Source of the DNA: an uncultured bacterium
Lineage (GTDB): Bacteria > RBG-13-66-14
Assembly (NCBI GenBank): GCA_964577465.1
Contig: CAZNZF010000001.1
Location: 1-60,480 of the forward strand
Reading direction: 5' to 3'
Length of the DNA: 60,480 bases
Part shown: positions 5,385 to 59,592 of the stretch, piece by piece
Numbering within the stretch: position 1 is the stretch's first letter
Layout of the letters: each line of letters begins with the position of its first letter
Translations under genes and position numbers: made by a program
Notes under the pieces: model-generated
The model's database searches: none
What the model was told of the DNA's origin: nothing
The model's input: only the letters and a program-made list of their open reading frames with translations

Positions 5385-5386
5385 CG

Positions 5387-6826: not shown

Positions 6827-6834
6827 GAGCGGAC

Positions 6835-12110: not shown

Positions 12111-13460
12111 ATGGAACAAAGAACCCGAGTACTAATCGTTGACGACGACTCCAACTTCTGCGAAAGCACTTGTGACGGCCTCAGCCTCGAGGGTTACGAC
12201 GTCAGGTACGCCACCACGGGCAAAGAAGGGCTCGAATATTTCAAATCCTGGAATCCGAGCATCGTCCTGTTGGACCAAAAACTCCCCGACATCCTGGGAA
12301 CGGAGGTCGAAAGGCAGATCCGGGAGGCGGACCCCGGGGTCAAGGTCATCTTCGCCACCGCCTACGGGTCGCTCTCCGGGGCGGTCGAGGCGGTCAAGAA
12401 CGGGGCCTTCCACTACCTTACGAAACCGCTCGAGATAGACGAGTTCTACTTCACCGTGGCTAAGGCCGCCCGCCTGGCCGAGCTCGAACGGCGCACCCGC
12501 ATCACGGAGTTCCAACTCTCGCGGGCGCGGCAGACCGACGAATTCGCGGGCGATTCCTCGGCGATTCAGGAGACGCAGCGGCTCATCGAGCTGGCCGCCC
12601 AGACCGATTCCACTATACTCATCACCGGGGAAACCGGGGTGGGCAAAGGAGTCGCGGCGCGGGCCATCCACCGTAAAAGCGGCCGGAAGGACGACCTGTT
12701 GTCCGTGAACTGCGCCTCAATCCCCGAGAGCCTCATCGAATCGGAGCTCTTCGGTTACGAGAAGGGGGCCTTTACCGGCGCCGACTCACGGCGGAAAGGG
12801 GTCTTCGAGCTGGTCAAGGACGGCACCCTTCTGTTGGACGAGATTGCCGAGATGCCCCTCCAGCTTCAGAGCAGGCTGTTGACCGTGCTGGAAGAGGGTC
12901 GGATTCGGCGCCTGGGGGGCGACGTGGAGATACTCCTGAACGTCCGGGTCATCGCCACCACGAACCGGCCCATCGTCGAGGACATCAAGAACGGCCGTTT
13001 CCGCGAGGACCTCTACTTCAGGCTGGCCATCATCACCATCAACGTTCCCCCGCTCAGGGAACGCCGGGAGGATATTCCCATACTCTGTAAAAACCTGTTG
13101 GAAGGCATGACCAACGGTATCTACAGCGAGCTGCCCCCGGAGCAGCTCACCGCGCTGATGAGTTACCGCTGGCCCGGCAACGTACGTGAACTTCACAACA
13201 TCCTGGAGCGCTCGGTGATTCTCGCGGCCGGCGGGGTGCTCGACCCCGCGTCGCTTATCGAAGGCGTATCCGGGAATTACGGCGGACCGGGGACGACCGA
13301 TATCCGCTCCCTGGAAGATGTAGAGTGGGAGCACATCGATCGGGCCTTGAAATTTCACCGGTACAACAAAACCCACGCGGCTATGGCGCTGGGGATATCA
13401 CTTTCCACACTCAGACGACGCGTCGCGGCCTACGAGTGTCTGGGAAAAAAGAAGGCCTGA
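12111..13460 (+). CDS. Sigma54-dependent response regulator (NtrC-family enhancer-binding protein)
   Basis: The 449-aa ORF has a receiver domain (VLLDQKLPD), an AAA+ domain with Walker A GETGVGKG and the sigma54-contact loop EKGAFTGA, and a C-terminal Fis-type HTH. Confidence 0.9.
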   Translation: MEQRTRVLIVDDDSNFCESTCDGLSLEGYDVRYATTGKEGLEYFKSWNPSIVLLDQKLPDILGTEVERQIREADPGVKVIFATAYGSLSGAVEAVKNGAFHYLTKPLEIDEFYFTVAKAARLAELERRTRITEFQLSRARQTDEFAGDSSAIQETQRLIELAAQTDSTILITGETGVGKGVAARAIHRKSGRKDDLLSVNCASIPESLIESELFGYEKGAFTGADSRRKGVFELVKDGTLLLDEIAEMPLQLQSRLLTVLEEGRIRRLGGDVEILLNVRVIATTNRPIVEDIKNGRFREDLYFRLAIITINVPPLRERREDIPILCKNLLEGMTNGIYSELPPEQLTALMSYRWPGNVRELHNILERSVILAAGGVLDPASLIEGVSGNYGGPGTTDIRSLEDVEWEHIDRALKFHRYNKTHAAMALGISLSTLRRRVAAYECLGKKKA

Positions 13461-13648: not shown

Positions 13649-15094
13649 GTGATTTATTCGAAACGAATCATTCTGGGTGTGATTATCCTCATGATTCCAG
13701 CCGCCGGGATGAACATCTTCGGCACCCGGGCCATGGGGATGGGCGGCGCACAGGTGGCGCTGGTCGACGACGCCACCGCCGCCTTTTGGAATCCGGCGGC
13801 CTTCGGGAACCAGGTCAGCTTCTCCACCACCGAAAGCATCTTCGGTTTCACGGGCGAGGACAACCTCACCCAGTACGTAAACGGACTGAACCAGTATTAC
13901 ACCCTAAAAGACACCATCCCGAACAACTACAATGATTTCCTGGACTACATGGACGACAATTCCGAAGAGGCGCACCGTTACATAGACGACATCGTGGACT
14001 CCCTCGGCGATTTCAACGACCCCGGCGTGGGTATAGTCTGGGACCTCCACTCCGGCGTGGCGACCCGGGTCGGTCCGGCGGTCGTTTCCTGGCTCTACGA
14101 AAACCGCATCGAGGTCGGTCCCTGGGTGGACAACCACCTGTCACGCCTCATACCCACCGAGTACCTGCGATCCCCCAACGACGTCCTTTCTCTTTACAAC
14201 GAAGGGCTCCTGAGCGGCGACGAGTTCGCCCTGCTCTGGCCCGGCTACAATCCCAACAATCCTGATCAGGATTCGTTCATCGGCGACCACCTCGGGAACA
14301 GCATCGGCCTGGATGACAACGGCTCTCTCATCACCATCTCCGGTCTGGTGACGAACACCATCGGTTTCAGCTACGGCTACTCCTTCGAGCTGACCCGGGA
14401 CGACTTCATCGCGGTGGGCGGAACCCTCAAATTCATTTTTGGGGAGCGCAGCGGGGACTCCACCGGCATTCTGATCGACGCCGACCTCGACACCTTCGAC
14501 CCGGGCATCCTCGACGTCGGCTCGAACTGGATTCTCAACAACATCTTCACCCTGCGCACCATGACCACGGGGAGCGGCTTCAGCGTGGACCTGGGCGTTC
14601 AGGGGAGGCTGGGCAAGCAGTTCCGCTACGGGCTCCTGGCGCGCAATCTCATCCCCACCCAACTGGCCTGGGACGACCCGCGATTCAAGCCCACACCGAT
14701 AAATCCGGAGCTCCGCCTCGGAGCGGCCTACGAGCCCGTCGAGGGCCTTTACTTGGCGCTGGACCTGGACCTTCTCCCCGTGGATAACCTGTCCTGCAGG
14801 TACAACCCGCTGACCGGTGTCGAGGAGGACGCGGTCTCCTACCACGAGCGGAGCATCGCCCTGGGCGCCGAGTACAACGTCGGAGGGGTTCTCACCGTGC
14901 GCGCCGGGATGAGCACAAATTACAACGCCCTCTTCGAGGAGGAGTCACCGGCCAAGTTCATCCTCTCCACCGGGATTGGGTTCGACATCGGCGAGGTGTT
15001 CCACATGAGCCTGGCGTTCATGAGCAACCTCATCCGGCCCCGAGACGTGGACGCCAGCCTGGGCGGCTCCCTCTCCCTCGGCTTCACCCTGTAA
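13649..15094 (+). CDS. Putative outer-membrane beta-barrel protein (PorV/TraF_2-like)
   Basis: 481-aa ORF with a signal peptide, the motif GTRAMGMGGAQVALVDDATAAFWNPAA typical of PorV/TraF-like barrels, and a C-terminal aromatic/hydrophobic end (LSLGFTL). Confidence 0.5.
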   Translation: MIYSKRIILGVIILMIPAAGMNIFGTRAMGMGGAQVALVDDATAAFWNPAAFGNQVSFSTTESIFGFTGEDNLTQYVNGLNQYYTLKDTIPNNYNDFLDYMDDNSEEAHRYIDDIVDSLGDFNDPGVGIVWDLHSGVATRVGPAVVSWLYENRIEVGPWVDNHLSRLIPTEYLRSPNDVLSLYNEGLLSGDEFALLWPGYNPNNPDQDSFIGDHLGNSIGLDDNGSLITISGLVTNTIGFSYGYSFELTRDDFIAVGGTLKFIFGERSGDSTGILIDADLDTFDPGILDVGSNWILNNIFTLRTMTTGSGFSVDLGVQGRLGKQFRYGLLARNLIPTQLAWDDPRFKPTPINPELRLGAAYEPVEGLYLALDLDLLPVDNLSCRYNPLTGVEEDAVSYHERSIALGAEYNVGGVLTVRAGMSTNYNALFEEESPAKFILSTGIGFDIGEVFHMSLAFMSNLIRPRDVDASLGGSLSLGFTL

Positions 15095-16391: not shown

Positions 16392-16625
16392 TTACAATCG
16401 AGCTTCCCGGTCCTCTCCACCACCCTTCCGCCGGTCGACTATAACGCGCCTCACCGCGGCCCAGACCAGCAACCCGACGAGCACGAGCAGCAGGGTGTAC
16501 TGGAGCCAGTCCAGCTCCTGTTGCAGGAAGACCGGCGCCCGTCCGTCGATGAGTGCGACGACGCCCTCCGTTAGAATCCAGAGGAGGGCGAGGCCGGCGA
16601 TGACGGCCCGGACATACACCGTCAA
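16392..16625 (-). CDS. Small two-TM membrane protein (hypothetical)
   Basis: Last 77 codons of track ORF 16392-18350. The TTG start overlaps the MFS TGA stop in a TTGA junction. Two hydrophobic helices are present and GC3 is high. No family was recognised. Confidence 0.35.
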   Translation of the reverse strand: MTVYVRAVIAGLALLWILTEGVVALIDGRAPVFLQQELDWLQYTLLLVLVGLLVWAAVRRVIVDRRKGGGEDREARL

Positions 16626-17983
16626 CCTCTCCGCGAATTCTGGCGGAACAGGCCGCGCATCCAGTACACCGGGCGCTTGAACCCGGTCTCGCCCAGATGG
16701 GACACCAGCGGCTGGACGTAGCTGTCCGTCCGCCGGCTCATCCGCAGGAAGAGGAAGGCCGCCGCCACCCGGAGGGCGCCGGAGATGACGAAGACGAGCT
16801 GATAGCCGGTGGGCCAGCCGCCGGCGAGGGGCACGGTGCCTCCGATGAGCTTCGCCACGGCGCCGCCCGTCATCGAGCCGCCGAAGTACCCCAGGCCGGA
16901 GAGCACCGCCACCAGTGCGATGGCGTAGGGGCGGCTCTTCTTCGTGGCGATGGCCAGCGGAGCGGCGAAGACCGCCAGGTTCATCGCCGACCAGAACGCC
17001 CCGGACAGTACCGCCTCGGGCCATACGGGCCAGCTGAACCCCGGGCCGGTCGCGCTCCAGACCAGCGGAAAGAGGCCCAGCACGACCCCGCAGGTCGCCA
17101 GGACCGCCCGGGCGCCGAAGCGGTCCAGCGCCCGGCCCCAGAACCGGTTGGTGACCAGGACCGCCACCGTCACGATGACGCCGTACGCCTGGATGGTGGT
17201 GTAGGAGAAGCCGAGGTAGTTCAGGGCGTGGGGCAGGAAGAACGGGCCGCCCACGCCGATGGCGAAGTTCCAGCACACGACGGCGAAGAGGAACCGCCGG
17301 AGGTTGTCGTTGTCCACGGCGTCCCGCAGCCCCCGGAAGATGTTGAACTCGGTCCTGTTCTGCCGGGGTGAGGGCGGGTATTTGGCCAGGAGGTACACGC
17401 TCACCGCGCCGCCCGCCACCGCCGCGCCGAAAACGATGACGTGCGCCAGGGCGAGGTGGCCCTCCCCCAGAAGGTCCACGAGCGCCGCGGCGCCCAGACC
17501 GGCGGCGAGCCCCGTCGCGCCGGTGAAGATGTTGCGGGTGCCGAAGTACCTCCCCCGGATGGTGACCGGGACGAAGTCGGCGGACCAGGAGACCCAGGCG
17601 TTTTCCAGGGGCGCCGCGAAGGCGTAGCTGACGGCCGCGGTGAACACGAGCAGCATGAGGCGCGTGTCCGAATCCAGGGGCAGGATGAGGAGCACCGCCG
17701 GAACGACCCACACCATGCGGTGCACGGCGGAGGTCCAGATGAAAATCGGCCGGTGCCGCACCCCTCGGGAGATGAGGTAGGCCGAGAGGAGCTGGAGGGG
17801 ACGGAACAGGAAGGGCAGGGAGCCCAGGAGCCCCAGCATGAGCTCGTCGGCCCCCAGCTTGATGGCGAAGCCGGTGAAGACGACACCGGCGGCGATGGAG
17901 AGGTGGAACTGGGCCAGGCAGCCTTCCCAGGTGCATAGGGCCAGGTCGCGCCTGAGCTGCCCGCGGTCGAGCTCCACGTTCAA
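16622..17983 (-). CDS. MFS transporter
   Basis: About 453-aa polytopic ORF with roughly 12 TM segments. The TTG start at 17983 overlaps the upstream stop; an alternative GTG lies at 17977. The track ORF's N-terminal extension overlaps the phosphatase gene. Confidence 0.8.
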   Translation of the reverse strand: MNVELDRGQLRRDLALCTWEGCLAQFHLSIAAGVVFTGFAIKLGADELMLGLLGSLPFLFRPLQLLSAYLISRGVRHRPIFIWTSAVHRMVWVVPAVLLILPLDSDTRLMLLVFTAAVSYAFAAPLENAWVSWSADFVPVTIRGRYFGTRNIFTGATGLAAGLGAAALVDLLGEGHLALAHVIVFGAAVAGGAVSVYLLAKYPPSPRQNRTEFNIFRGLRDAVDNDNLRRFLFAVVCWNFAIGVGGPFFLPHALNYLGFSYTTIQAYGVIVTVAVLVTNRFWGRALDRFGARAVLATCGVVLGLFPLVWSATGPGFSWPVWPEAVLSGAFWSAMNLAVFAAPLAIATKKSRPYAIALVAVLSGLGYFGGSMTGGAVAKLIGGTVPLAGGWPTGYQLVFVISGALRVAAAFLFLRMSRRTDSYVQPLVSHLGETGFKRPVYWMRGLFRQNSRRG

Positions 17984-18645
17984 GCCTTGGGGAAGAGGGG
18001 CGGGAAGGGGTCCGAGCGGAGCTCCGGGGGGAGGTGCTCCCGGTCGTTGAACGAGGCGAGGTTCGGCTGCTCGCCCTGCCAGACGACCCGCGAGAAGCAC
18101 GCGTTGTCAAGGCGGAACCGGATCCAGCCGTCGAAGGGAATGCCCAGGACCCGGGCGAGGAAGTGGGAGAGTATACCCCCGTGGGCCGCGACGAGGGCCC
18201 GGTTCCACTCCCCGCCCAGAACCTTCTCCAGCGCAACCGAGGCCCGCTCGTAAACGTCCCGGCGGGACTCGCCCCCCGGGAAGCGGTACTCGCCCCGGCG
18301 GTACGTATCCGGGTCAATTCCGGGCAGGAAATGCGCGTGGAACTCAGCATAGGTCTGGTTGGCCGCCGTCCCCAGGTCGATTTCTTCCAGCTCGTCGATG
18401 ACCACGGAACGCGGTATCTGTACCCGAAGGGAAAGCCCCCGCTCGAATGCAGGGGCCAGGGTCGCCGCCACCCTCCCGGCCGGCGAAGTGTAAACGGCGT
18501 CGACGCCGAGATTCACCAGCACGTCGGTCAGAGCCAGGGCCTGCCGAACGCCGCGTGCGGAAAGGGGGTAATCCGTCCGACCCTGGAGGATACCCCGCTC
18601 GTTGGCCGTCGTCTCGGCGTGTCGAAGTAAATATAGCTCTTTCAA
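17980..18645 (-). CDS. Histidine phosphatase family protein (phosphoglycerate mutase/CobC-like)
   Basis: 221-aa ORF starting (TTG)KELYLLRHAETTAN, which is the RHG-type catalytic motif. A second His region reads VAAHGG. Confidence 0.85.
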   Translation of the reverse strand: MKELYLLRHAETTANERGILQGRTDYPLSARGVRQALALTDVLVNLGVDAVYTSPAGRVAATLAPAFERGLSLRVQIPRSVVIDELEEIDLGTAANQTYAEFHAHFLPGIDPDTYRRGEYRFPGGESRRDVYERASVALEKVLGGEWNRALVAAHGGILSHFLARVLGIPFDGWIRFRLDNACFSRVVWQGEQPNLASFNDREHLPPELRSDPFPPLFPKA

Positions 18646-35135: not shown

Positions 35136-35867
35136 GTGAACGCTGGAACGATGGGTCGAAAAATAACAGGCGTCGTCCTGCTGCTGCTGTCCGCCTGCCT
35201 GGCCGAGGCCGACGGGGAGCTCACCCTGGCCGACCGGTCCGTGGAGGTCGTGGAGGTCGAATACCCCACGCCCGAATTCATCGCCGAAACGACATACAGA
35301 ATCGGTGTGGACGACCTCCTGTCCATCACCATCGTCGGCCATCCCGAACTCTCCGGCTCTTACCACGTGGATCCCGAGGGGTATCTGAACCTCCCCTACC
35401 TGGAGGATTTCATCGCCGTGGGGTACACCCCCCACGAGCTGCGCAAGAAGCTGCTCGAGGAGTGGGCCCCCTATCTGGGCCACCCCCAGATAGGTCTCGA
35501 GGTCCAGGAGTATTCGAGCTGCAGGGTCTACGTGCTCGGCGAGGTGAAAGACCCCGGCCGCTACAACTACCGGGTGAGGCTGAGCCTGGTCGAGGCCCTG
35601 GCCGAAGCCAGCGGGTTCTGGGGCAATCCCGTGGAGAGCGAGGTAGCCATCATCCGTGTATTGCCGGACGTGACCCGCCTCTACCTGGTCGACGTGCGGG
35701 GCATCCTGGAGGAGGGTCGGGCGGCTCTCGACGTGCCGCTGGCCGCCGGGGACATCGTGTACGTCCCCCGCACTTTCATCGGCGACTGGAACGAATTCCT
35801 GAACAACATCGCCCCGACACTGCGCGCCGTATTCGACGCGAACCGACTTTACAACCTGAGCTGGTAG
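35136..35867 (+). CDS. wza: Polysaccharide export outer-membrane protein (Wza-like: Poly_export + SLBB)
   Basis: The 243-aa ORF has a signal/lipobox-like LLSAC, YRIGVDDLLSITIVGHPELSG (Poly_export motif), and SLBB-like RVYVLGEV..PG.Y and GDIVYVP. The start is GTG at 35136 or ATG at 35151. Confidence 0.85.
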   Translation: MNAGTMGRKITGVVLLLLSACLAEADGELTLADRSVEVVEVEYPTPEFIAETTYRIGVDDLLSITIVGHPELSGSYHVDPEGYLNLPYLEDFIAVGYTPHELRKKLLEEWAPYLGHPQIGLEVQEYSSCRVYVLGEVKDPGRYNYRVRLSLVEALAEASGFWGNPVESEVAIIRVLPDVTRLYLVDVRGILEEGRAALDVPLAAGDIVYVPRTFIGDWNEFLNNIAPTLRAVFDANRLYNLSW

Positions 35868-35868
35868 A

Positions 35869-38244
35869 GTGGAACAACCGACCAACCCAGGCCGTGGACG
35901 CGGCGCACCCAAGGTATCCGAATACCTCCTCGTACTGCGGAAGCGGAAGTGGATAATCATTTTCGCCGTGCTGATCTCGCTCACGATCGCCACCTACCAA
36001 TCCTACACAACTCCCCCGACCTACGTGGCGACGGCGTCCCTGGTTCTCGAGGCCTCGGGGCAGAACACCGATTTCCTGCAGGGCTTTTACTCGGCCTTCC
36101 AGCCGTTTCGCCTGGAGACCGAGCTCCAGATCATCTCGAGCCGTTCCATCTGCCTGGGCGTGGTCGAGCGGCTGAACCTCGCCTTCCATCCCCAGGAACA
36201 GCTCCCCGACGGCGTATTCTTCCAGGATCCCTTCGTCGAAGTAGGCTTCCCCGTCGGCCGGTACAGGGTGATCGAGAGCGAGACCGGCTTCTCGGTTCTC
36301 GACGACGCGCAAGACGCCATCGGTGAAGGTCTCTACGACCAGCCCTTCGTGTCGAACGACGGGCTTTTCGGCTTCACCCTCCACGACCCCGAGCCCCACC
36401 CCAAGCGAATCATCAGCATCAAGGCGACCAACCCCATCCAGGAAGCCGAGAGCATCCGCCATTCCATCAGCGTACAACAGGCCAGCGACTCAAACGCGTT
36501 CACCGTGAGCGTTTCCCATACGGACCCGAAGATGGTGGCCAGGCTGGCGAACACCGTCGCCGAGGTCTATGTGGATGAGAATCTTCGCTGGAAACAGGAG
36601 CGCGCCCGTAAGGCCCGAGAGTTCATCGGGCAGCAGATCGAGGTGGCCGAGGTCAAGCTGCGGCTGACCGAGGATCTCCTCAGGGAGTACAAGGAAGAGC
36701 TGGGCATCGTGTCCTTCACCGATGAGGCGAGGGAGATGATTAACCGCCTGAGCAACACCGAGGAGAGCAAGAGCAACCTGGAACGGGACCTCGCCGAGCT
36801 GGAGGGACAGAAAAGAACCGTCGAGAACTACCTGAATCGAGGCGAGATAGACCTCGACACGCTGATGGCCATCAGTTCCTGGCCCACGTTCCAAACTGAC
36901 CAGTTGTTGAGGGATTTCGTCCGGACGGCCGGGGAGCTCACGGTCGAAAAGCAGCAGCTGAAACAAACCTCCGGTCATCTAAACCCCAGGCTGGACGAGA
37001 TCGATGGAGAGCTGGACGCCCTCGAAAATGACATTGAGAATCGGCTCTCCTACATCATCGACTCCGGCGCCCTCGGCATCTCCATAGAAGGCGTCAAATC
37101 CAAGATCGAGGAAACGTCGAGCACCATCTCCGTGCTCACTTCGGAGCTCTCCATCATGCCGCGGGAGGAAATGGAGCTCTCCATCCGGGAGAGAAAGAGC
37201 GACGTCGCGTCGAAAATCCACTCGCTACTCCTCGAACGGTACGAGGAGGCCCGCATCAACGAGAGCATGGAAACGGGCGACGTCCGCATCATCGACCGGG
37301 CGATACGACCCGTGGGGCCGGTAAGCCCCAACCATGTTTCGGACCTTCTCCTCGGCCTGGCCATCGGCCTCATCATCGGAATCGGCCTGGCCATGATCGT
37401 CGAGATGAACGACACGACGGTGAAATCGGCCGATGAGGTTACGAACCTGACCGGGCTAACGCTGATCGGCACAATACCGAAAGCGACCGAGGAGTTCGAG
37501 GACCTCGGCAAGGGTCATCTGACAGTTTTAGAAAATCCCCGTTCCCCCATCGCGGAAACGTACCGCATCATCCGCACGAATATCCAATACTTCAGCATCG
37601 ACAAGCAGATCCGCGTCCTGTCCATTACGAGCCCCAGCAAGGGTGAAGGGAAGACAACGACCGCGGCGAACCTGGGCGTGTCCATCGCCCAGCAGGGTCA
37701 TAAAACCCTGTTGGTGGACACCGATCTGCGCAAGGCGAAGATGCACCGCTTCTTCAACATCCCCAACACCCCCGGCTTTACCGAGCTCATCCTCGGGGAC
37801 AGGACCGACGAGGAGGTCATCCGATCCACCCGTGTCGAAAACCTCTTCGTCCTCCCCTCGGGGCACCCGCCGCCCAATCCCTCCGAGCTCCTGTCCAGCC
37901 GCCGGACACAGGATATCCTCGAACGATTCCGCCAGGAGTACGACAAGGTGATCCTGGATACCTCCCCCGTCCTGGCGGTAACCGACCCCGCAATCCTGGG
38001 GACCCTGGTCGACGGAACCATCCTCATCGTCGAATCCGAGGTGAGCGAGGCCGAGGCCGTCAAGGAAGCGGTGAACCTCTTGAAAAACGCGCGGGCTCAG
38101 ATACTGGGCTTCGTTTTAAACAAAGTGGATCTCACCCGAACGTACAGATCGCACAGGTACTACCACTACTACTACTACCACGACGACGACGAGGCGGAGC
38201 GGTCCAAAGGTTCGATTTGGAAACGTTTCCGGGGCAAAAAGTAA
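35869..38244 (+). CDS. wzc: Polysaccharide co-polymerase / BY-family tyrosine autokinase (Wzc/GumC-like)
   Basis: Features of the 791-aa ORF:
- a Wzz-type N-domain with two TM helices and a long coiled-coil;
- Walker A SPSKGEGKTTTAANLG, Walker A' LLVDTDLRK and Walker B VILDTSP;
- a C-terminal Tyr cluster YRSHRYYHYYYYH. Confidence 0.88.
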   Translation: MEQPTNPGRGRGAPKVSEYLLVLRKRKWIIIFAVLISLTIATYQSYTTPPTYVATASLVLEASGQNTDFLQGFYSAFQPFRLETELQIISSRSICLGVVERLNLAFHPQEQLPDGVFFQDPFVEVGFPVGRYRVIESETGFSVLDDAQDAIGEGLYDQPFVSNDGLFGFTLHDPEPHPKRIISIKATNPIQEAESIRHSISVQQASDSNAFTVSVSHTDPKMVARLANTVAEVYVDENLRWKQERARKAREFIGQQIEVAEVKLRLTEDLLREYKEELGIVSFTDEAREMINRLSNTEESKSNLERDLAELEGQKRTVENYLNRGEIDLDTLMAISSWPTFQTDQLLRDFVRTAGELTVEKQQLKQTSGHLNPRLDEIDGELDALENDIENRLSYIIDSGALGISIEGVKSKIEETSSTISVLTSELSIMPREEMELSIRERKSDVASKIHSLLLERYEEARINESMETGDVRIIDRAIRPVGPVSPNHVSDLLLGLAIGLIIGIGLAMIVEMNDTTVKSADEVTNLTGLTLIGTIPKATEEFEDLGKGHLTVLENPRSPIAETYRIIRTNIQYFSIDKQIRVLSITSPSKGEGKTTTAANLGVSIAQQGHKTLLVDTDLRKAKMHRFFNIPNTPGFTELILGDRTDEEVIRSTRVENLFVLPSGHPPPNPSELLSSRRTQDILERFRQEYDKVILDTSPVLAVTDPAILGTLVDGTILIVESEVSEAEAVKEAVNLLKNARAQILGFVLNKVDLTRTYRSHRYYHYYYYHDDDEAERSKGSIWKRFRGKK

Positions 38245-39215
38245 CCCTATTCACCGCGCTGACGAGTCGAGATCCCAGCGATCTGGCTCGTCATATTATG
38301 GAGACGCCGGACGCCCTTGAATGGCTGAGGGAGGAGCGGCTCGCCCCGCTGGCGGATTGGAGGCTGGGCGGCGGGAGTTTGGCACAGGGCTTGCAAAAAG
38401 AAGTTCGTGCCTCCCTGAAGGAACAAAGGCGTCGAGAGGCTCGCTGGGAGTTGGTCCAAACCGCTCCGCTCCTGGACCTTCTGGCGGAAACGGCGACTCT
38501 GCAACCGCTGGCCCTCAAGGGGTTGGATTTCCGCGCACGGCTGTACCCACCCGCCACCAGGCCGGCGTCGGACATCGACATTTACGTAGAACGCGGGAAG
38601 ATGGGCCGGTTCGCCGAGGCGGCGGAAAAAACGGGCTGGAGGCTGGACACCCGGGGGAGGCTGGGGCGCAGGCTCTGGCGGCGTTGGAACCATCTCATCT
38701 GGGGCAAGGATCAGACCGTTCTGGAAGTTCACTACGCCCTCACGGCACCCGGGAGGTACAACGAGGATTTCAGGTTCGGGGAAAATCCCACCCCCCTGGA
38801 CCTGCACGGAGTAACGCTCTGGGTGCCATCCAGGGAGGACGCGACGCTCTTCTGCCTGGTCCACCTCTGCGGGAACCACTTCTTCGATTCACACCTCCTG
38901 TCGGTTTACGACATCTGGATGTTGTGTCCCGGCCTCGATTGGGGTAAACTCTACGCGAGTGCGCGCAAGGCGGGATTGGAACGGACGGTCTGTTTCGCGG
39001 TTGCATATCTGAGAGGCTACCCGACGCTGAGGGGGCTCGTCCCGCCCGGGGAACCGCTCCGGCCGGGTCGATTCGGGAAGGGATTCTTCGAAAAGAAACA
39101 TAAAAGGGTCCGGGCACGGTCCAGGCTGCTGGGGCTCTACCTCGCGGATCCGCCGATACGCTCTCTGACCTACGTTCTCGGCCACCTCGGCGAAAGGCTC
39201 GACATCTTCCGATGA
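38217..39215 (+). CDS. PF14907-like 'uncharacterised nucleotidyltransferase' family protein
   Basis: The 332-aa ORF has ...PLALKGLDFRARLYP....RPASDIDIYV.. matching the KG...R..xDiDllV core of NTP_transf_5. The TTG start at 38217 overlaps wzc by 28 nt and the start is uncertain (an ATG lies at 38298). Its stop overlaps the PqqD ATG (ATGA). Confidence 0.65.
   Translation: METFPGQKVTLFTALTSRDPSDLARHIMETPDALEWLREERLAPLADWRLGGGSLAQGLQKEVRASLKEQRRREARWELVQTAPLLDLLAETATLQPLALKGLDFRARLYPPATRPASDIDIYVERGKMGRFAEAAEKTGWRLDTRGRLGRRLWRRWNHLIWGKDQTVLEVHYALTAPGRYNEDFRFGENPTPLDLHGVTLWVPSREDATLFCLVHLCGNHFFDSHLLSVYDIWMLCPGLDWGKLYASARKAGLERTVCFAVAYLRGYPTLRGLVPPGEPLRPGRFGKGFFEKKHKRVRARSRLLGLYLADPPIRSLTYVLGHLGERLDIFR
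38380..38395 (+). promoter_or_regulatory. Exact sigma54 -24/-12 motif inside the nucleotidyltransferase ORF
   Basis: TGGCAC-N5-TTGCA (TGGCACagggcTTGCA), oriented toward the PqqD, radical SAM and peptide genes. It is intragenic, so function is unproven. Confidence 0.35.
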
Positions 39216-39496
39216 AAACGTACGATCCCGACGCGGTGCCCGTGAAAACGGGGCGGATACCCTCCCAGGAAGTGGATGGCGAGATATTCGCCATCACCCC
39301 CGAAGACGGGATGCTCCACAATTTCAACGAGGTCGGGAGCTTCATCTGGAATCTGATCGACGGGAAACGCAGCCTCGCCGACATCGAAGGCTCAATCATC
39401 GCGGAGTACGACGTGGAATCGAACCAGCTCAGGAACGATCTGACGACGTTCTTCAAGGCGCTCGGTGAAAAGGGTTTGGTGGGATACAAACGCTGA
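39212..39496 (+). CDS. PqqD-family peptide chaperone (RiPP recognition element)
   Basis: 94-aa ORF with the PqqD pattern ....QEVDGEIFAI.PEDGMLHNFNEVGSFIWNLIDGKRSL.DI...I..EYDV......NDL..F...L...GLV. Confidence 0.8.
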   Translation: MKTYDPDAVPVKTGRIPSQEVDGEIFAITPEDGMLHNFNEVGSFIWNLIDGKRSLADIEGSIIAEYDVESNQLRNDLTTFFKALGEKGLVGYKR

Positions 39497-39534: not shown

Positions 39535-40659
39535 ATGAACGACGGGGCCACAGAACCGAAAACCTTCGCGAAGCTCCGCTGGAAAACCTTCCAACGTCAT
39601 ATCCCCTACCTCGTCACCCTCGAGTTGACCTACCGCTGCAACCTCCGGTGCACTCACTGTTACCTGACGCCGGACGACCCCCACCGGGAGGAGATGCCGG
39701 TCGAGGACTGGCTCCGGACCATCCGCGAACTCACCGACCTGGGGGCGTTCTACGTGACCGTCACCGGTGGTGAACCGACTCTGTACCCGGGATTCTGGGA
39801 CATCCTGGAGGAGCTGCAACGGCGGGAAGCGGTGGTCCGCGTCTTCACCAACGCCACGACCCTGACCGGGGAGGATGTGGACCGCCTGGTCATGTGCGGG
39901 GTCCGCTACGTGGACATCTCCCTCCACGGACCCGACGCCGCTACGCACGAGGCCGTGACCCGCACTCCCGGCAGCTTCGACGCAACGGTTGCGGCGGTAA
40001 AAAGGCTCCGGGCCGCCGGGGTATTCGTCAATCTCAAGGGCAGTCTTTTAAAGTCGAATTACAGCGTGGTCAACGAGCTGGACCGGTACATGCTGTCGTT
40101 AGGAGGCCGCCCGCTCCTGAACATGAACATCACCCCGGCCAACGACGGCGGCACGGGACCGCTCGAAAAGGCGCTCGGTGCCGAGGAGCACTGCTTTATT
40201 CTCGATAACTACGAACGCTTGCGAAATGAACCACCGGATGGCGAGCCCCCGGAGAAAACGGAATGGCTGAGGGTCTTTCACGCCGTTTCCTGCACCGCCG
40301 GCTTCTCGACCCTGTCCGTCACACCCGACGGCGAGGTGTTTCCCTGCTTGCAATTGCGCGCCTCGATGGGAAACGTCCGGCGGAGCACATTGAGGAAAAT
40401 ATGGCATCATTCTCCACTTAACCTCTATCTGACTGGTATGTTCACACTCCCGATACCTGACTGCCGGGATTGTGAGCTTGCCTATGGTTGCATGCGCTGC
40501 CCCGGCCTGGCCCTCATCGAAACCGGCAGCCTCTGGAGGTCCTCGCCCAGCACCTGTCAGATGGCGCGCAATTACACATCAGCCCACACCAAACACCTTA
40601 CACGAGAAGGAAACGGAAATGAGCAAGAAGACTTACACATCGCCCAGCCTGACAAGTGA
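39535..40659 (+). CDS. Radical SAM / SPASM-domain peptide-modifying enzyme
   Basis: The 374-aa ORF has the CxxxCxxC motif in YRCNLRCTHCY and a GGEP motif (VTGGEPTL). The C-terminal SPASM Cys clusters are CTAG....V.PDGEVFPC and CRDCELAYGCMRCPG. Confidence 0.88.
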   Translation: MNDGATEPKTFAKLRWKTFQRHIPYLVTLELTYRCNLRCTHCYLTPDDPHREEMPVEDWLRTIRELTDLGAFYVTVTGGEPTLYPGFWDILEELQRREAVVRVFTNATTLTGEDVDRLVMCGVRYVDISLHGPDAATHEAVTRTPGSFDATVAAVKRLRAAGVFVNLKGSLLKSNYSVVNELDRYMLSLGGRPLLNMNITPANDGGTGPLEKALGAEEHCFILDNYERLRNEPPDGEPPEKTEWLRVFHAVSCTAGFSTLSVTPDGEVFPCLQLRASMGNVRRSTLRKIWHHSPLNLYLTGMFTLPIPDCRDCELAYGCMRCPGLALIETGSLWRSSPSTCQMARNYTSAHTKHLTREGNGNEQEDLHIAQPDK

Positions 40660-40795
40660 AAGAATCTTTCAGGAATCATCGGCGAGGTGTCTGTATGATA
40701 TTCAGGGTTCCGTAACAACTTGTAAGAAGAAAACGGGAGCGTGCTCATACAGCACTATTGAGGGTTATTGCACTATCTGGCCCTTCGATTCCTAG
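40619..40795 (+). CDS. Candidate RiPP precursor peptide (58 aa, 4 Cys)
   Basis: ATG at 40619 with GAAGGA 9-14 nt upstream. It overlaps the radical SAM 3' end by 41 nt. Sequence: MSKKTYTSPSLTSERIFQESSARCLYDIQGSVTTCKKKTGACSYSTIEGYCTIWPFDS. The stretch is AT-rich compared with its surroundings. It is visible only as the tail of track ORF 40472-40795. Confidence 0.55.
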   Translation: MSKKTYTSPSLTSERIFQESSARCLYDIQGSVTTCKKKTGACSYSTIEGYCTIWPFDS

Positions 40796-40907
40796 CGGGG
40801 GGATTGGACGCATTGGGGCGAATCAGGGCACTACCAGATCCCTTTAAACCAGAGAGGGCTGGATTAACCGAGACCTGAAAGCCGGGCTCATAGCGGAAGC
40901 GCTGCGC

Positions 40908-41339
40908 GTGAGCGGTCCCCGATGGGTGAAGAGCCGTGGCCGATGCCACGGTGAATTGATACCCGAGGGGGACGAGCTACTCCTGGAGCCCTTCGGGGAA
41001 ACGCCCCCGCGGGTCGGCGAGATAGCGGCCTATATAAATCCCGACGGCCTCGAGGTCGTCCACCGCCTCTGCCACCGGGACACCGACGGCTGGTGGGGCA
41101 ACGCGGACACGGTGCTGGCGATGGAGCGCACCGGAAGCCTTATAGGCCGCGTCACGGCCCGGCGGTGGAAGGGCTCCGTCCGCGCCGTGAGGCCGATGCC
41201 CGCGCGGGCCGGGCTGGCCTGGCTCATCCACCGGCTCTACCGACACTCCCACGGCCTTTTAGGAGCCTGGGGGCGGGTTGTCCTGCAACTTGTACAGCGG
41301 CTCAAACCACTGCTCTACCACACCCGACAGGGAATATGA
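40908..41339 (+). CDS. S24/S26 (LexA/signal peptidase)-fold protein with Cys at the nucleophile position
   Basis: The 143-aa ORF starts with GTG. VKSRGRCHGELIPEGDELLL, GEIAAY, EVVHRL, WWGNAD and SLIGRV align by eye to the V.G.SM.P.l..GD.v.v / GDIv.f / v.HRv / KGDn / i.G.v blocks of S24/S26 peptidases. Its stop overlaps the next gene's ATG (ATGA). Confidence 0.35.
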   Translation: MSGPRWVKSRGRCHGELIPEGDELLLEPFGETPPRVGEIAAYINPDGLEVVHRLCHRDTDGWWGNADTVLAMERTGSLIGRVTARRWKGSVRAVRPMPARAGLAWLIHRLYRHSHGLLGAWGRVVLQLVQRLKPLLYHTRQGI

Positions 41340-42658
41340 ACCACAACGAACCGGCAAAGAGACTGAAAGAAGGCCCGGCGGTCTTCGGCGTCATCGGCCT
41401 GGGCTACGTGGGGCTGCCCCTCGCCCTGGAGTTCGCCGAGGCCGGCATCCGCGTCATCGGCTTCGACATCGACCCGTCGAAGGTGGAATCCCTGCAAAAA
41501 GGCGAGAGTTACATCCAGCAGATACCGGCCGGGCGGATCAAGCCGTACGTGGACTCGGGCATTTTCGAGGCGACCGGCGACCTGGACCGCCTGGGCGAGG
41601 TCGACGTCATCGCCATCTGCGTGCCCACGCCGCTGGACGACCACCGGCAGCCGGACCTGAGCTTCGTTGAAATCACGTCCCGGGACGTGGCCCGTCGGCT
41701 GAAGAAGGGGCAGGTGGTGATTCTCGAGTCCACCACCTATCCCGGCACCACCCGGGAGGTCGTCCGGCCCATCCTCGAGGAGGGATCGGGCCTCAAAGGC
41801 GGGACGGACTTCTTCCTCGCCTTCTCCCCGGAGCGGGAGGACCCGGGCAACAAGGACTACCGGACCCGGACGATTCCCAAGGTCATCGGCGCGCTGACTC
41901 CGGCGGGGCTGGACCTGGCCAAAAATTTCTACGACCGGGTCTTCGAGAGGACGGTCCCGGTGTCCAGCCTCGAGGTGTCCGAGATGACGAAAATCTTCGA
42001 GAACACCTTCCGGGCCGTGAACATCGCCCTGGTCAACGAGCTGAAGATGCTGGCGCTGCGCATGGGGGTCAACCTGCACGAGGTGATAGACGCCGCCTCG
42101 ACGAAGCCCTTCGGGTTCATGCCCTTCCGCCCGGGGCCGGGCCTCGGGGGGCACTGCATCCCCATCGACCCCTTCTACCTCACCTGGAAGGCCCACGAGT
42201 ACGAGTTCAGCACCCGCTTCATCGAGCTGGCCGGCGAGATAAACACGGGGATGCCCCGTTTCGTGGTGGAACGCACCACCGAGGCGCTCAACCACGCGGG
42301 CAAGCCGCTCCGGGGCTCGAAAATTTTAATCCTCGGCATATCCTACAAACCCGACATCGACGATATGCGCGAAAGCCCGGCCGTGCCGGTCATGGAGGGC
42401 CTGCTCGCGCGTGGGGCGAAGGTGGACTACCACGACCCGCACATCCCCAAGATGCCCGCCACGCGCCAGACCGGACTGCGCCTGGAGAGCATCCCCCTGA
42501 AGGATTACTCCGTGCTCGCGGCCTACGACGCCGTGATCGTCGTGACCAACCATTCCTCATACGATTACCGGGAGGTGGTCCGACGCGCGGCCCTGGTGGT
42601 GGACACGCGGAACGCCACCGCGGGGATACCGAACGATGGGAACGTGTGGCTGGCCTGA
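41336..42658 (+). CDS. Nucleotide-sugar dehydrogenase (UDP-GlcNAc/ManNAc dehydrogenase-like; UDPG_MGDP_dh family)
   Basis: ATG at 41336. The 440-aa product has the Rossmann motif VIGLGYVGLPLA and the catalytic Cys context GGHCIPIDP. Confidence 0.88.
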   Translation: MNHNEPAKRLKEGPAVFGVIGLGYVGLPLALEFAEAGIRVIGFDIDPSKVESLQKGESYIQQIPAGRIKPYVDSGIFEATGDLDRLGEVDVIAICVPTPLDDHRQPDLSFVEITSRDVARRLKKGQVVILESTTYPGTTREVVRPILEEGSGLKGGTDFFLAFSPEREDPGNKDYRTRTIPKVIGALTPAGLDLAKNFYDRVFERTVPVSSLEVSEMTKIFENTFRAVNIALVNELKMLALRMGVNLHEVIDAASTKPFGFMPFRPGPGLGGHCIPIDPFYLTWKAHEYEFSTRFIELAGEINTGMPRFVVERTTEALNHAGKPLRGSKILILGISYKPDIDDMRESPAVPVMEGLLARGAKVDYHDPHIPKMPATRQTGLRLESIPLKDYSVLAAYDAVIVVTNHSSYDYREVVRRAALVVDTRNATAGIPNDGNVWLA

Positions 42659-56660: not shown

Positions 56661-57239
56661 CCAGGGTCCGGTCGAGGACAGCCCCTCCACGGATACACCG
56701 CAATCGAAAGTGGTGAACAGGACGGTGAAGAGCGCCACGGCCGGCCAGAAGCTCCCCGCCGCCCAGGTCAGCATCCCCGCCAGACCGGCCGCCACGACGC
56801 CGCGGGTCGTGGGCACCACGGCGAGCACCGCCAGCGCCCCCCAGACGATTCTCCCCGTCAGGCCGCCCGAGTCGAGAAAGGCCGGCAGAAAGCGGTAGGC
56901 AAAGTAGGCCGTGCCGGCCGCGGCCACCGCGTTGGAGACCCAGACCCATACATCCGCCCACCCCGAGGGGAACGCGAGCTCGGGGAAGAGGAAGAACACG
57001 GCGACGGCGACCGCGACCGCGATGAGTAGCTGCCGGTAGACGCTCGCCCCCGGCTCGGCCGGAACCCGATTGAGCTTGAGCCAGACCAGCGGCGCGGCGA
57101 TGCCGACCGCGACGAAGGTAATCAGCCGGTAAAAAAGCTCGTAGGCCACGTTGGCCCCGCCCAGCCAGTGGGTCGCGGCCAGGAGGGCGTACGCGGCTAT
57201 CAAACCCAGGGCGTAAAAAAGACGTATCCTCGACGACAT
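56445..57239 (-). CDS. Polytopic membrane protein (hypothetical)
   Basis: 264-aa ORF with 6-7 hydrophobic helices. The last ~65 codons are a charged, low-complexity tail antisense to 56346-56660, so the true 3' end is uncertain. Confidence 0.5.
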   Translation of the reverse strand: MSSRIRLFYALGLIAAYALLAATHWLGGANVAYELFYRLITFVAVGIAAPLVWLKLNRVPAEPGASVYRQLLIAVAVAVAVFFLFPELAFPSGWADVWVWVSNAVAAAGTAYFAYRFLPAFLDSGGLTGRIVWGALAVLAVVPTTRGVVAAGLAGMLTWAAGSFWPAVALFTVLFTTFDCGVSVEGLSSTGPWLIIALAGLVPLVLVTLRGALAHKSRKQDEADALGDVDREVDEHQGQRGVVILPHHPGQEEAADEERRGQDE

Positions 57240-59592
57240 GGTGTCACCTCGGCTTCACAAAATTATATGGGTCATCCTCCTGCTGGTCAAGCCGGCCGTG
57301 GCGGATGCCTGGTCCGAGGCCCAGTCCGCCGCCGAGGCCGGGGATTACGCGGGGGCTGTCTCGATTCTGACCCGGGCCGCGGACGCGGGTGAGGTCCGCC
57401 CGGACAAGCTGGGCCGGTACGAGACCCAGATTTTCCTCTGGCGCCGGGAACTGGGCGAGGGACGGCAGGCCCTGGACAGGCTTTTCGAGCTGCCCGAGCG
57501 GGCTCCGGGCGGACTGGACTCCGCCGCCCTGGCCCTGGGGGATTATTTCGCCCAAAACCCCACCGACCTCCAACTCTGGTTCGAGGCCGCGGAGCACCGC
57601 AACGCATGGAACGGCGTGGCGGGCGCGCTGGCAAAGCGGCTTCTGGATAAGAACGCCTTCGAGGCCGCCGCCCGGGTGGCCGGTTCCCAGCCCGCCCGGT
57701 GCCGGAACGTGCTCGACGACCTGGCCCGCCGACCGGAAAGCGCCGAGCTCGCCCTGGCCTCCTACGGAGGGGACCCCTACGCGTTCGACCTGGGCACCTG
57801 GAAAACCTGGCTCCGCCTGACCGAGTCCGCCCGGGGACCCGAGGTCGCGGTGGCCGAGGCCCTGCGAAAGGTCGAGCGGGACCCGGACCGGGTGGAGTTC
57901 CGCTGCGAGGCCAGCGAGCGGCTGCGCGGTCTCGGCCGCGCCGGCGAGGCCCTCGGGCTGTGGGAAGACCAGGACGGCACCCGGGACGACCGGGTGTACG
58001 TCGAGCGGGGGGAGTGCCTCTTCTCCCTGGGTCGCGTGGACGAGGCGCTGGAAAACTGGCGGGCCAAGCTTAACCGGCCCAACCTGCGGCCGGGCGACGT
58101 GCGGACGGTGGCGCGGATTTTCTCCGACCACGGCCTCAACGAGGAGGCGCTCCGGCTGCTGGAAAACCCGCCCACCGGCGATTCGGCGGAATACAGTCGG
58201 GACATTGCCCGGCTTTTGTTCACCCTCGGGCGCTACCGGGACGCCGCCGAAACCAGCGTCGAGGCCGTCTCCCGGGATGGTCCCGGCTCCTGGGCCGTCG
58301 CGTTCTTCGGGGGTTTCGGCGCGACGGAGGAGACGGCGCTCGTCGCCCTGGACACCCTCGAAGGCCGCGAGGAGCCGGTATTCGGCCGCATCCGCCTGGG
58401 CCTCGCCCTCTCGCCCTGGGCCCTGGATTCCGTGGAGGACGGCCCCGGGCCCCTACCCCACCCCTGGCGGGGGGAGAGGCCGACGCCCGTGCTGGATGAA
58501 CGCGCACGCAGCGTCGTCGAGGACGAAATCCGCTCCATGACCGCCTTCTTCGCCGAGAACGCCGACATCACCCCCTGGCTCGTCGGCGCCGGCGGAATCC
58601 TCCCCCTCGAGATGGTGAGCGCCCTGGGACAGGCCGGACTGCCGGAGATGGCGCTGGAAGCCGCCCTGCGGCTGGCCTTGCTGGAGGGCCTGACAGACGC
58701 CGCCCGGGGAGCGCTCGCGTCCGCCGGCCTGTCCCTCGCCTGCGCTTTTCAACTTAGCGCCCAGGGCTACGAGCCCGATGAAATCCTGGCCCTGAACCCC
58801 GTCGACGGTGAGCTGAAATGGCGGACGGCCCTCTTCCTCCTGCGCGGAGGTCGGCCCGCCGAGGCGGAGGCGCTGCTGGGTGAAATTTCGGCGGACCGCG
58901 GTTACGGCCCCGACGGGGAGGAGCTGCTCGCCGCGCGTATCGAGGCCGCCCTGCGCCTGGACGAGCCGGAACGGGCCTGGGGGCTCACCGGGCGGACGCC
59001 GGACGACCTCGACGAACCGGCCGACCCGGAGCTTCACTACCAGTTAACGCTGCTGCAGCTCGCGCACCTGGCGGAAATGCTCGACGCGGACCCGTCCTTC
59101 GACCCGGGTCCGGTCCTGAATCGGGTCCGGCGGTACATCGCGCTGAACGCCGACGACCCCCGGGCCACGGACCTCCTGCGCCTGGTCCTGGCCTCGGGCT
59201 TCGCCGAAAGCCCCGGCGAGAAGGCGGCGCTCGCCGACCTGGTGGAGGCCGCTTTGGCCGGCTACCGGGGCGATTCGTCCGCGGAGGAACGCCGCCTCCG
59301 CGACGCTCTGGCCGCCGGCGGTCCGCTGGGCGACGAGGCGGCGGTCCAACTGGCCGACCTCCTGGCCGGGGAGGGGGATTACACCTCGGCCCGCGACGTA
59401 CTCGCGGACGTCATCACCACCGGCACCGAAGGCACGGGCGACCGGGCGCTGGCCCTGGCGGCCTGGCTCGACGCCGATTTTCTCGAAAACGCCGAGGGCG
59501 CAATCGGCGACCTGACGAGCCTGGTCAGCGGTTACCCCGGATCGGTGCTGCTGGAATACGCCCGCCGCGGCCTGGCCGCCCTGGGCCGATGA
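57238..59592 (+). CDS. Secreted TPR-like / helical-repeat protein (hypothetical)
   Basis: 784-aa ORF with a signal peptide (KIIWVILLLVKPAVADA) and a balanced, Ala/Leu/Glu/Asp-rich helical-repeat composition. The antisense ORFs look artefactual. Confidence 0.6.
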   Translation: MVSPRLHKIIWVILLLVKPAVADAWSEAQSAAEAGDYAGAVSILTRAADAGEVRPDKLGRYETQIFLWRRELGEGRQALDRLFELPERAPGGLDSAALALGDYFAQNPTDLQLWFEAAEHRNAWNGVAGALAKRLLDKNAFEAAARVAGSQPARCRNVLDDLARRPESAELALASYGGDPYAFDLGTWKTWLRLTESARGPEVAVAEALRKVERDPDRVEFRCEASERLRGLGRAGEALGLWEDQDGTRDDRVYVERGECLFSLGRVDEALENWRAKLNRPNLRPGDVRTVARIFSDHGLNEEALRLLENPPTGDSAEYSRDIARLLFTLGRYRDAAETSVEAVSRDGPGSWAVAFFGGFGATEETALVALDTLEGREEPVFGRIRLGLALSPWALDSVEDGPGPLPHPWRGERPTPVLDERARSVVEDEIRSMTAFFAENADITPWLVGAGGILPLEMVSALGQAGLPEMALEAALRLALLEGLTDAARGALASAGLSLACAFQLSAQGYEPDEILALNPVDGELKWRTALFLLRGGRPAEAEALLGEISADRGYGPDGEELLAARIEAALRLDEPERAWGLTGRTPDDLDEPADPELHYQLTLLQLAHLAEMLDADPSFDPGPVLNRVRRYIALNADDPRATDLLRLVLASGFAESPGEKAALADLVEAALAGYRGDSSAEERRLRDALAAGGPLGDEAAVQLADLLAGEGDYTSARDVLADVITTGTEGTGDRALALAAWLDADFLENAEGAIGDLTSLVSGYPGSVLLEYARRGLAALGR

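Follow-up and report, generated by a model that had tools for sequence, protein, structure and literature searches.

A 58-residue open reading frame (ORF) at positions 40619-40795 (+ strand) of a 60,480-nucleotide stretch of DNA (contig CAZNZF010000001.1 of assembly GCA_964577465.1, from an uncultured bacterium of the lineage RBG-13-66-14; hereafter the window) probably encodes the precursor of a five-part cassette of the RiPP type (a RiPP being a peptide made on the ribosome and then modified). The other four parts, as read from sequence comparison, are an NTP_transf_5 protein, a PqqD-family protein resembling the B1 proteins of lasso peptides, a radical S-adenosylmethionine (rSAM)/SPASM enzyme and a peptidase of S24/S26 fold with Cys/His/Asp catalytic residues. 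Judged by its conservation in related genomes, the ORF is a real gene, and its product is of a known kind, a Cys-bearing, rSAM-modified RiPP dependent on a RiPP recognition element (RRE). The first-pass annotation, made from the letters of the window, had proposed an uncalled precursor with a YxxPxL leader serving the PqqD and rSAM proteins, and the position of the ORF, the selection on its leader, the retention of its Cys residues and the breadth of its family all speak for that proposal.

The ORF begins at an ATG (40619-40621), 7 nt downstream of a Shine-Dalgarno element GAAGGA (40606-40611, +) read directly from the sequence, and ends at a TAG (40793-40795), giving the product MSKKTYTSPSLTSERIFQESSARCLYDIQGSVTTCKKKTGACSYSTIEGYCTIWPFDS. 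It is the tail of a 107-residue stop-to-stop frame (40472-40795) and shares 41 nt with the rSAM/SPASM gene (39535-40659); the start, ribosome-binding site, parent frame and overlap agree with the first-pass annotation, and the translation is identical. Residues 1-22 (MSKKTYTSPSLTSERIFQESSA; 40619-40684, +) make up the predicted leader, with its boundary placed by the register of lasso leaders, and include YTSPSL at residues 6-11 (40634-40651, +), just where it had been reported. The predicted core, residues 23-58 (RCLYDIQGSVTTCKKKTGACSYSTIEGYCTIWPFDS; 40685-40795, +, including the TAG stop), carries Cys at 24, 35, 42 and 51, separated by 10, 6 and 8 residues as previously described (codons starting at 40688, 40721, 40742 and 40769), and ends in Ser (codon 40790-40792). 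GC content is 0.45-0.49 across 40550-40775 compared with about 0.60-0.76 in the flanks, and the ORF itself has a GC content of 0.46 and a third-position GC content (GC3) of 0.54, against GC3 values of 0.74-0.90 in neighbouring genes. An AT-rich tract had been claimed for all of 40380-40800; it is narrower than that, with a slight dip (GC 0.54-0.59) across 40380-40550, and of the rare codons said to mark it, the precursor frame contains AGA (once) and TCA (twice) but neither TTA nor ATA.

The exact window peptide is absent from the protein collection in which the window rSAM enzyme and the protein encoded downstream are both present, so the precursor ORF appears to have been left uncalled in the source assembly. 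Two homologues have been called elsewhere, one labelled 'hypothetical protein' and the other without a name, and no Pfam or NCBIfam model matches the peptide. The region 3' of the gene shows no stable RNA structure (z = -0.26) and no Rfam match, and the counts of terminators and promoters after the gene equal the shuffled expectation.

The evidence that this is a gene comes from related loci, which we retrieved by searches seeded with the window rSAM enzyme. The clade comprises loci L001/L083, L002/L004, L003, L005, L006 and L007, together with one additional homologue (P0001) from a protein search. L003 is a metagenome contig 100% identical to the window; in the others the rSAM enzyme is 87% (L001/L083), 74% (L002/L004, Candidatus Coatesbacteria RBG_13_66_14), 60% (L005), 56% (L007) and 54% (L006) identical to that of the window, and the loci are not assembly duplicates of one genome, with flanks that differ by 7-30%. 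All seven related Coatesbacteria-type loci have a small ORF at the identical position beside the rSAM gene, with the leader motif and the four Cys kept, and in every clade locus an AAGGA/AGGAG element lies 7-8 nt before its start. The overlap with the rSAM gene is incidental; the two genes are separate in L005. A protein search with the precursor peptide returned only two close homologues.

The leader consensus in the clade is M.KK.Y..P.[LFVI].SE.IFQE[AS]S..C, in which Tyr and Pro are invariant. The core is variable, yet the four Cys and a terminal [DN]S are kept in seven homologues, and a Tyr or Phe two residues past Cys1 and Cys3 is conserved. Between the window and L002, leader differences fall at codon positions 1, 2 and 3 in the numbers 3, 4 and 15, dominated by the third position, and core differences in the numbers 14, 13 and 19, spread over all positions, which points to purifying selection on the leader and fast change in the core. 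On these comparisons, a conserved leader joined to a rapidly changing core is the usual signature of a RiPP precursor. As a separate observation, L007 is 83% identical to the window in the NTP_transf_5 protein, 85% in the peptidase, 88% in Wzc and 92% in the sugar dehydrogenase, with merely 65% in the PqqD protein and 56% in the rSAM enzyme, and the 1 kb 5' of its peptide gene (mostly the rSAM gene) has a GC content of 0.46. The module of PqqD, rSAM and peptide genes thus seems to diverge or to be exchanged faster than the surrounding genes in L007, and also in L002 and L006.

To look beyond the clade, we used the seven clade peptides as the seed of an iterated profile search through the six-frame translations of 160 fetched loci (22,477 segments). 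There were 64 matches, of which 51 lie on the same strand as, and directly downstream of, an rSAM gene, and about 50 distant relatives lie directly 3' of PqqD-rSAM/SPASM pairs. The matches come from Acidobacteriota, Nitrospirota, Omnitrophota, Elusimicrobiota, Chloroflexota, Planctomycetota and other phyla (examples are MATQDKRPYEKPTLEPSSIFGADTTTCCRATNGTCS...TSTTS and ...KKYQKPKIVSEKIFEQAALACGKCISGNPVFVSGCRYLPRLS), and this wider family was recovered only from the six-frame translations of the fetched loci; Pfam and NCBIfam returned no match for ten distant members. A Y-x-x-P-x-hydrophobic motif is common to about 50 distant peptides, and at Tyr+15 all but one of 29 non-redundant leaders (28) carry A, S or T. 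Of 58 distinct peptides, 40 have their first Cys 18 residues after the Tyr of Y-x-x-P and 10 have it 20 residues after; 45 end in Ser and 6 in Thr, and the number of Cys ranges from 2 to 5, with three being present in 33. From these sequences, the window peptide is a member of a broad, unmodelled family attached to PqqD-rSAM/SPASM pairs in many uncultured bacterial phyla. The window itself has one family peptide; some distant loci contain two, or two PqqD copies with two peptides (L015, 4980-5725; L017, 3214-3960; L060, 4927-5070 and 7862-8062; L090, 2620-2739 and 3874-3996), such that multi-precursor or duplicated cassettes, as predicted from sequence, exist.

The protein expected to recognise the leader is a discrete, lasso-B1-like RRE of the PqqD family (39212-39496, +; PF05402, E 4.9e-16). 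Its nearest solved structures are TbiB1 (5v1u, E 1.3e-7) and a lasso PqqD chaperone (9x90, 1.2e-6), the PqqD structure 3g2b gives E 0.036, and its best NCBIfam match is lasso_PqqD_Bac at 39.9 bits against a cut-off of 80. Among solved structures, then, the protein appears closest in sequence to the leader-binding B1 proteins of lasso peptides. The window leader fits the lasso YxxPxL motif, and the position +5 from the Tyr is hydrophobic in homologues. In lasso leaders YxxPxL always occupies positions -17 to -12 (PMC10368454), a register that would place the leader/core boundary of the window peptide after residue 22, at SSA/R, with Ser21 at -2, where lasso leaders have Thr. RRE-Finder had found about 300 lasso-type discrete RREs beside rSAM enzymes and deemed them false positives of lasso mining (PMC7470986).

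The first-pass annotation had also reported that the cluster lacks a lasso cyclase and a B2 protease, and this holds: neither an Asn-synthetase-like cyclase nor a transglutaminase-like B2 was found in the cassette, in the operon genes of 35-56 kb or in the other large ORFs scanned, with smaller ORFs outside 35-56 kb lying outside the scan. It had gone on to call the leader and the enzymology mismatched or recombined. Recombination is partly borne out, in that both a B1-like PqqD protein and an NTP_transf_5 protein, the latter being a lasso tailoring partner, are combined here with an rSAM enzyme; mismatch is not, given the distribution of loci, since the combination of PqqD protein, rSAM enzyme and peptide with lasso-type parts is, as far as the sequences indicate, a widespread natural architecture and not a one-off. 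Among the closest parallels are the lasso clusters with a kinase and a nucleotidyltransferase (paeninodin, pseudomycoidin and the Bradymonas bsf cluster with A, B1, B2, C, K, N and D). Common to both are the YxxPxL leader, a discrete PqqD-family RRE (B1-like here) and an NTP_transf_5-family 'N' enzyme, and also a conserved C-terminal Ser, which in paeninodin and pseudomycoidin is the target of the kinase and N enzymes. Distant members of the present family even carry an HprK-like kinase, as paeninodin-type clusters do, directly upstream of PqqD; the window clade is without it. What differs is that an rSAM/SPASM enzyme and an S24/S26-fold peptidase replace the lasso cyclase and B2, and that the core is Cys-based with no Asp or Glu acceptor at positions 7-9.

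The rSAM/SPASM enzyme (39535-40659, +; PF04055 and PF13186) is predicted to be a peptide-modifying enzyme and has no fused RRE. It contains CxxxCxxC and seven conserved C-terminal Cys in the SPASM region, and its nearest solved structures are SkfB (the best match), PqqE, SuiB and CteB. No NCBIfam rSAM family scores it above its cut-off, among them ScmE (115 against 400), ScmF (86.6 against 400), StsB (85 against 625), AlbA (84 against 850) and SkfB (80 against 300). By analogy with sactipeptides and ranthipeptides (SkfB, AlbA, CteB, PapB and StsB), with which it shares a full set of auxiliary-cluster Cys in the enzyme and a small precursor next to its maturase with several core Cys (here four, conserved), we regard Cys-derived thioether cross-links as having about an even chance of being the core chemistry. 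Those maturases generally have a fused N-terminal RRE, whereas here the RRE is separate and lasso-like, and the leader motif, the C-terminal Ser, the S24/S26 peptidase and the NTP_transf_5 protein are features of this cassette and not of theirs.

Another relationship is to SynChlorMet (ScmC/D/E/F; TIGR04248-04251) and HPr-rel-A (TIGR04352-04355). ScmE, an rSAM enzyme, and ScmD, a PqqD protein, are the best-scoring NCBIfam relatives, ScmC or HprK_rel_A/B is nearest to the protein of about 270 residues in distant cassettes, and the logic of a PqqD protein, a PqqE-like rSAM enzyme and an HprK-like protein (here in the distant cassettes) is common to both. Scores are nevertheless far below the cut-offs (ScmE 115 against 400, ScmD 39.7 against 100, ScmC/HprK_rel-type 41 against 125); the present cassette has a single rSAM enzyme instead of two, the window contains no ScmC-like protein, and the present cassettes add an S24/S26-like peptidase, an NTP_transf_5 protein and an identified candidate precursor. 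To our knowledge neither SynChlorMet nor HPr-rel-A has a known precursor, and for SynChlorMet this is the statement of its curators.

Downstream of the precursor lies a peptidase-like protein of 143-158 residues (40863-41339, +), identified by profile matches and an AlphaFold 2 model. Pfam and NCBIfam gave it no direct match and a search of PDB sequences with its profile gave none; when 1.8 billion representative proteins were searched with the same profile, the matches included proteins that themselves exceed the Pfam S24/S26 thresholds, a transitive link. A first model from a 13-sequence alignment (predicted local distance difference test score, pLDDT, 45) gave meaningless Foldseek matches and was superseded by one from a 30-sequence alignment (pLDDT 89.7), which matches the lambda cI C-terminal domain, UmuD', human SEC11A/C, SipA and E. 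coli SPase I with a probability of 1.00. In the sequence alignment Cys28 (40944-40946, +) matches the nucleophilic Ser of G-x-S-M-x-P and His67 (41061-41063, +) with the general-base position, and His67 and Asp82 (41106-41108, +) are invariant. Of 81 cassette-linked homologues, 52 have Ser/His/Asp and 23 have Cys/His/Asp; Ser and Cys would be expected to interchange in this way only at a position that works as a nucleophile. Modelling thus establishes an S24/S26 fold with a predicted Cys/His/Asp triad in place of Ser/Lys. The fold agrees with the S26-type peptidase that had been suggested at this place, on which remote homology and the confident model concur; the catalytic residues do not, being Cys/His/Asp and not Ser/Lys.

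The model has no membrane anchor; in its place are one N-terminal helix and two C-terminal amphipathic helices. The protein most likely acts as a cytoplasmic leader peptidase. S26B (Sec11, SipW) and S24 (LexA/UmuD type) peptidases have the same beta-barrel fold, and S26B enzymes of the endoplasmic reticulum/archaeal type likewise use His instead of Lys as general base with a conserved Asp; the homologue in the cassette of locus L046 passes the TIGR02228 cut-off. The window clade and 14 other cassette homologues differ from S24/S26 peptidases in their Cys nucleophile, and the modelled protein differs from signal peptidases in lacking an anchor and in its likely substrate, a cytoplasmic RiPP leader and not a secretory signal peptide. 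The first-pass annotation had read SSA/R as an S26-type site with small residues at -3 and -1. SSA/R coincides with the lasso-register boundary, but the rule fails, as -1 is Ala in the window only and V, V, I, I, I and L in six homologues. A-x-A directly before the first Cys is common in distant members (the clade has S-x-[RKPS]), which suggests R23/C24 as a second candidate site.

The peptidase gene also has an unusual beginning. The conserved N-terminal helix LKAGLIAEALR (within 40848-40910) is encoded upstream of the first canonical start, GTG 40908, and an in-frame TAA (40845-40847) stands just before it; 40848-40910 nevertheless appears to be translated, because its differences from L002 are mostly synonymous. 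An Ile codon lies 4 nt past GAGGG (ATT in L001 and the window, ATA in L002, ATC in L007), whereas in L005 and L006 a start codon, ATG or TTG, lies some codons farther upstream of this helix. This pattern suggests that the gene has a non-canonical start codon, possibly ATT 40863.

The first gene of the cassette encodes the NTP_transf_5 nucleotidyltransferase-family protein (38217-39215, +; PF14907, E 6e-31) and overlaps the end of the Wzc gene at its stop and the start of the PqqD gene. When the 160 loci were scanned with local profiles, a PqqD protein was found in 137, an HprK-like protein (about 270 residues, usually just upstream of PqqD) in 117, an S24-like protein in about 79, an NTP_transf_5 protein in about 53 and all five elements in 27. 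One protein, P0153, is a fusion of NTP_transf_5 to an S24-like domain, and on this sequence evidence NTP_transf_5 and the peptidase are shown to be linked by co-occurrence and gene fusion. Several of P0144, P0146, P0159 and P0161 have the S24-like domain joined to a GNAT acetyltransferase. Locus L046, typical of the distant ones, has the order HprK-like, PqqD, rSAM, peptide, S26-like, ABC transporter and NTP_transf_5. The HprK-like proteins (for example L046 2864-3676 and L088 2891-3715) are weakly similar to ScmC and HprK_rel_A/B, and their profile, although strong in 117 loci, matches nothing in the window or in any clade locus. The HprK-type kinase of paeninodin/pseudomycoidin-type lasso clusters (PsmK) phosphorylates the C-terminal Ser, to which the NTP_transf_5-family enzyme PsmN then adds a hexose (PMC6993621).

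Together these parts suggest a pathway. By analogy with the binding of YxxPxL by lasso B1 proteins, the PqqD protein would bind the leader through Tyr6, Pro9 and Leu11 and hand the core to the RRE-less rSAM/SPASM enzyme. That enzyme would modify the Cys-bearing core, most likely forming thioethers, first at the Cys fixed at +18 from the Tyr; the S24/S26-like peptidase would cut the leader off after residue 22 (the lasso register) or 23 (directly before Cys24); and the NTP_transf_5 protein may decorate the conserved C-terminal Ser58, as PsmN does. Several points weigh against this account. Sactisynthases and ranthisynthases usually have a fused RRE, which the window rSAM enzyme does not, and its reaction cannot be assigned because it scores below all curated family cut-offs. 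At the proposed cleavage site the -1 residue is not small in homologues. With no kinase in the window clade, the paeninodin/pseudomycoidin precedent, in which phosphorylation comes before decoration, cannot be carried over as it stands. Finally, the family profile was iterated on loci preselected for rSAM genes, which favours rSAM-adjacent matches, although the search took no account of position or strand.

We weighed this account against four others, two of which concern what the ORF is. Many long spurious ORFs arise in a GC-rich genome, and an ORF that is uncalled in its source assembly and matched by no curated family could be a chance, non-coding one in the AT-rich 3' end of the rSAM gene and the intergenic region. 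Its start, Shine-Dalgarno element, frame, leader, four Cys and terminal Ser are, however, conserved at rSAM identities from 88% to 54%, the leader changes are mainly synonymous, and distant homologues from many phyla occupy the same position, comparative data by which a chance origin is effectively refuted. Nor do we give much credence to a lasso precursor that relies on a cyclase and a B2 protease encoded elsewhere, which we hold to be very improbable. The YxxPxL leader, the B1-like RRE and an NTP_transf_5 protein of the kind that tailors lasso peptides would all suit it. Set against them, neither cyclase nor B2 occurs among the cassette genes and other large ORFs scanned, the lasso-register core (RCLYDIQGS...) starts with Arg, not a small residue, and has Q, G and S at positions 7-9 with no Asp or Glu acceptor, and in more than 50 loci the peptide recurs in tight coupling with an rSAM gene. 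A true lasso peptide was rejected because the cyclase and the B2 protease are missing among the ORFs scanned and the acceptor residue is missing from the core.

The other two accept the peptide as genuine and differ over what is made from it. If it is a true rSAM substrate with a chemistry other than thioether formation, such as C-C or C-O cross-links on the conserved aromatics, epimerisation or Cys conversion, the Cys would act in disulfides or as metal ligands. The enzyme scores about 100 bits, below cut-off, to ScmE, the ACGX rSAM, MftC, AhbD, PqqE, StsB, AlbA and WgkB alike, its solved relatives PqqE and SuiB are not thioether enzymes, and the aromatic residues after Cys1 and Cys3 give a clade-conserved C-x-Y/F. 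Cys is nonetheless the sole type of core residue kept family-wide, at a fixed distance from the leader motif, the commonest Cys count is odd (three in 33/58), which argues against a purely disulfide role, and the best solved match, SkfB, forms thioethers; we consider such a chemistry rather unlikely. Less probable again is that the peptide serves as a scaffold in the style of pyrroloquinoline quinone (PQQ), mycofactocin or the pearlins, with a small molecule or tag built on its C-terminal Ser by the NTP_transf_5 protein, possibly from the sugar nucleotides of the operon, and then released or transferred, for example to a polysaccharide. The C-terminal residue is Ser or Thr in 51 of 58 family members, and the discrete PqqD protein, rSAM/SPASM enzyme, peptidase and group-transfer enzyme parallel MftB, MftC, MftE and MftF of mycofactocin. 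The cassette is also translationally coupled within a polysaccharide operon in all seven clade loci, and five distant loci have a Wza or Wzc no more than 4 kb away. The likeness to the mycofactocin and PQQ pathways is one of layout, a PqqD-family chaperone and an rSAM/SPASM enzyme acting on a small peptide with a dedicated peptidase and transferase; the peptidase and transferase families differ, and their cores have a conserved C-terminal Val-Tyr or Glu...Tyr where this one is hypervariable and Cys-based. Cofactor precursors are conserved in sequence, whereas the core here diverges fastest (61-71% identity, against 87-88% for the rSAM enzyme), and most of the distant cassettes occur with ABC transporters and without polysaccharide genes.

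Around the cassette, all operon genes are on the + strand and tightly packed. Upstream are a Wza-like export protein (35136-35867, +) and a Wzc-like tyrosine autokinase (35869-38244, +); downstream of the peptidase follow, also on the + strand, a nucleoside diphosphate (NDP)-sugar dehydrogenase, a cytidylyltransferase, NeuB, a methyltransferase, a NeuC-type epimerase, a DegT aminotransferase, Wzx, glycosyltransferases and Wzy. These flanking genes indicate that the cassette sits inside a Wzx/Wzy-type polysaccharide operon making nonulosonic acid, and the arrangement Wza-Wzc ... NeuB/NeuC/Wzx/Wzy with the coupled cassette recurs throughout the clade. A general link to polysaccharide export was rejected, as among about 150 distant loci only 5 show a Wza or Wzc in a 4 kb neighbourhood, and we treat the link as clade-specific.

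The longest ORF of the NDP-sugar dehydrogenase (41093-42658, from GTG 41093) would cover most of the peptidase gene. Homology begins at about residue 99 and homologues begin MNHNE... (about 41330), so the gene probably begins near there and shares no more than a few terminal codons with the peptidase gene, which implies translational coupling. On the 5' side of the operon are a large adenylate/guanylate cyclase-AAA-TPR protein (7859-11242) and a sigma-54-dependent response regulator (12111-13460), which could regulate the polysaccharide/peptide operon. Four long ORFs, 5329-7857 (+, 842 residues), 13649-15094 (+, 481 residues), 16392-18350 (-, 652 residues) and 57238-59592 (+, 784 residues), matched no Pfam family at E <= 1e-5.

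In the curated libraries and literature that we searched, we found no description of the peptide family with its lasso-type leader and RRE, nor of its partnership with a Ser/Cys-His-Asp peptidase, the tailoring set of NTP_transf_5 and kinase or the embedding in a polysaccharide operon, although one may exist in a subscription journal. Taken jointly, it is a long shot that this is the first identified precursor of a RiPP class that combines lasso-type recognition with an rSAM/SPASM enzyme, a cytoplasmic Cys/His/Asp leader peptidase of signal-peptidase fold, tailoring of the C-terminal Ser by NTP_transf_5 (plus an HprK-like kinase in most members) and, in the clade, a Ser-linked, peptide-anchored or peptide-capped exopolysaccharide. 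More broadly, the window peptide offers a concrete substrate candidate for a large set of orphan PqqD-rSAM/SPASM cassettes, whose peptidase is itself unusual as a signal-peptidase-fold enzyme with a nucleophile that alternates between Ser and Cys. The family signature, K-x-Y-x-x-P-x-hydrophobic with +18 or +20 as the place of the first Cys and Ser as the last residue, could recover hundreds of uncalled precursors. It appears that the modules by which RiPPs are recognised and tailored can pass from one enzymology to another, here from lasso to rSAM, and the location of the clade cassette in an exopolysaccharide operon raises a possible link between peptide and polysaccharide biosynthesis.

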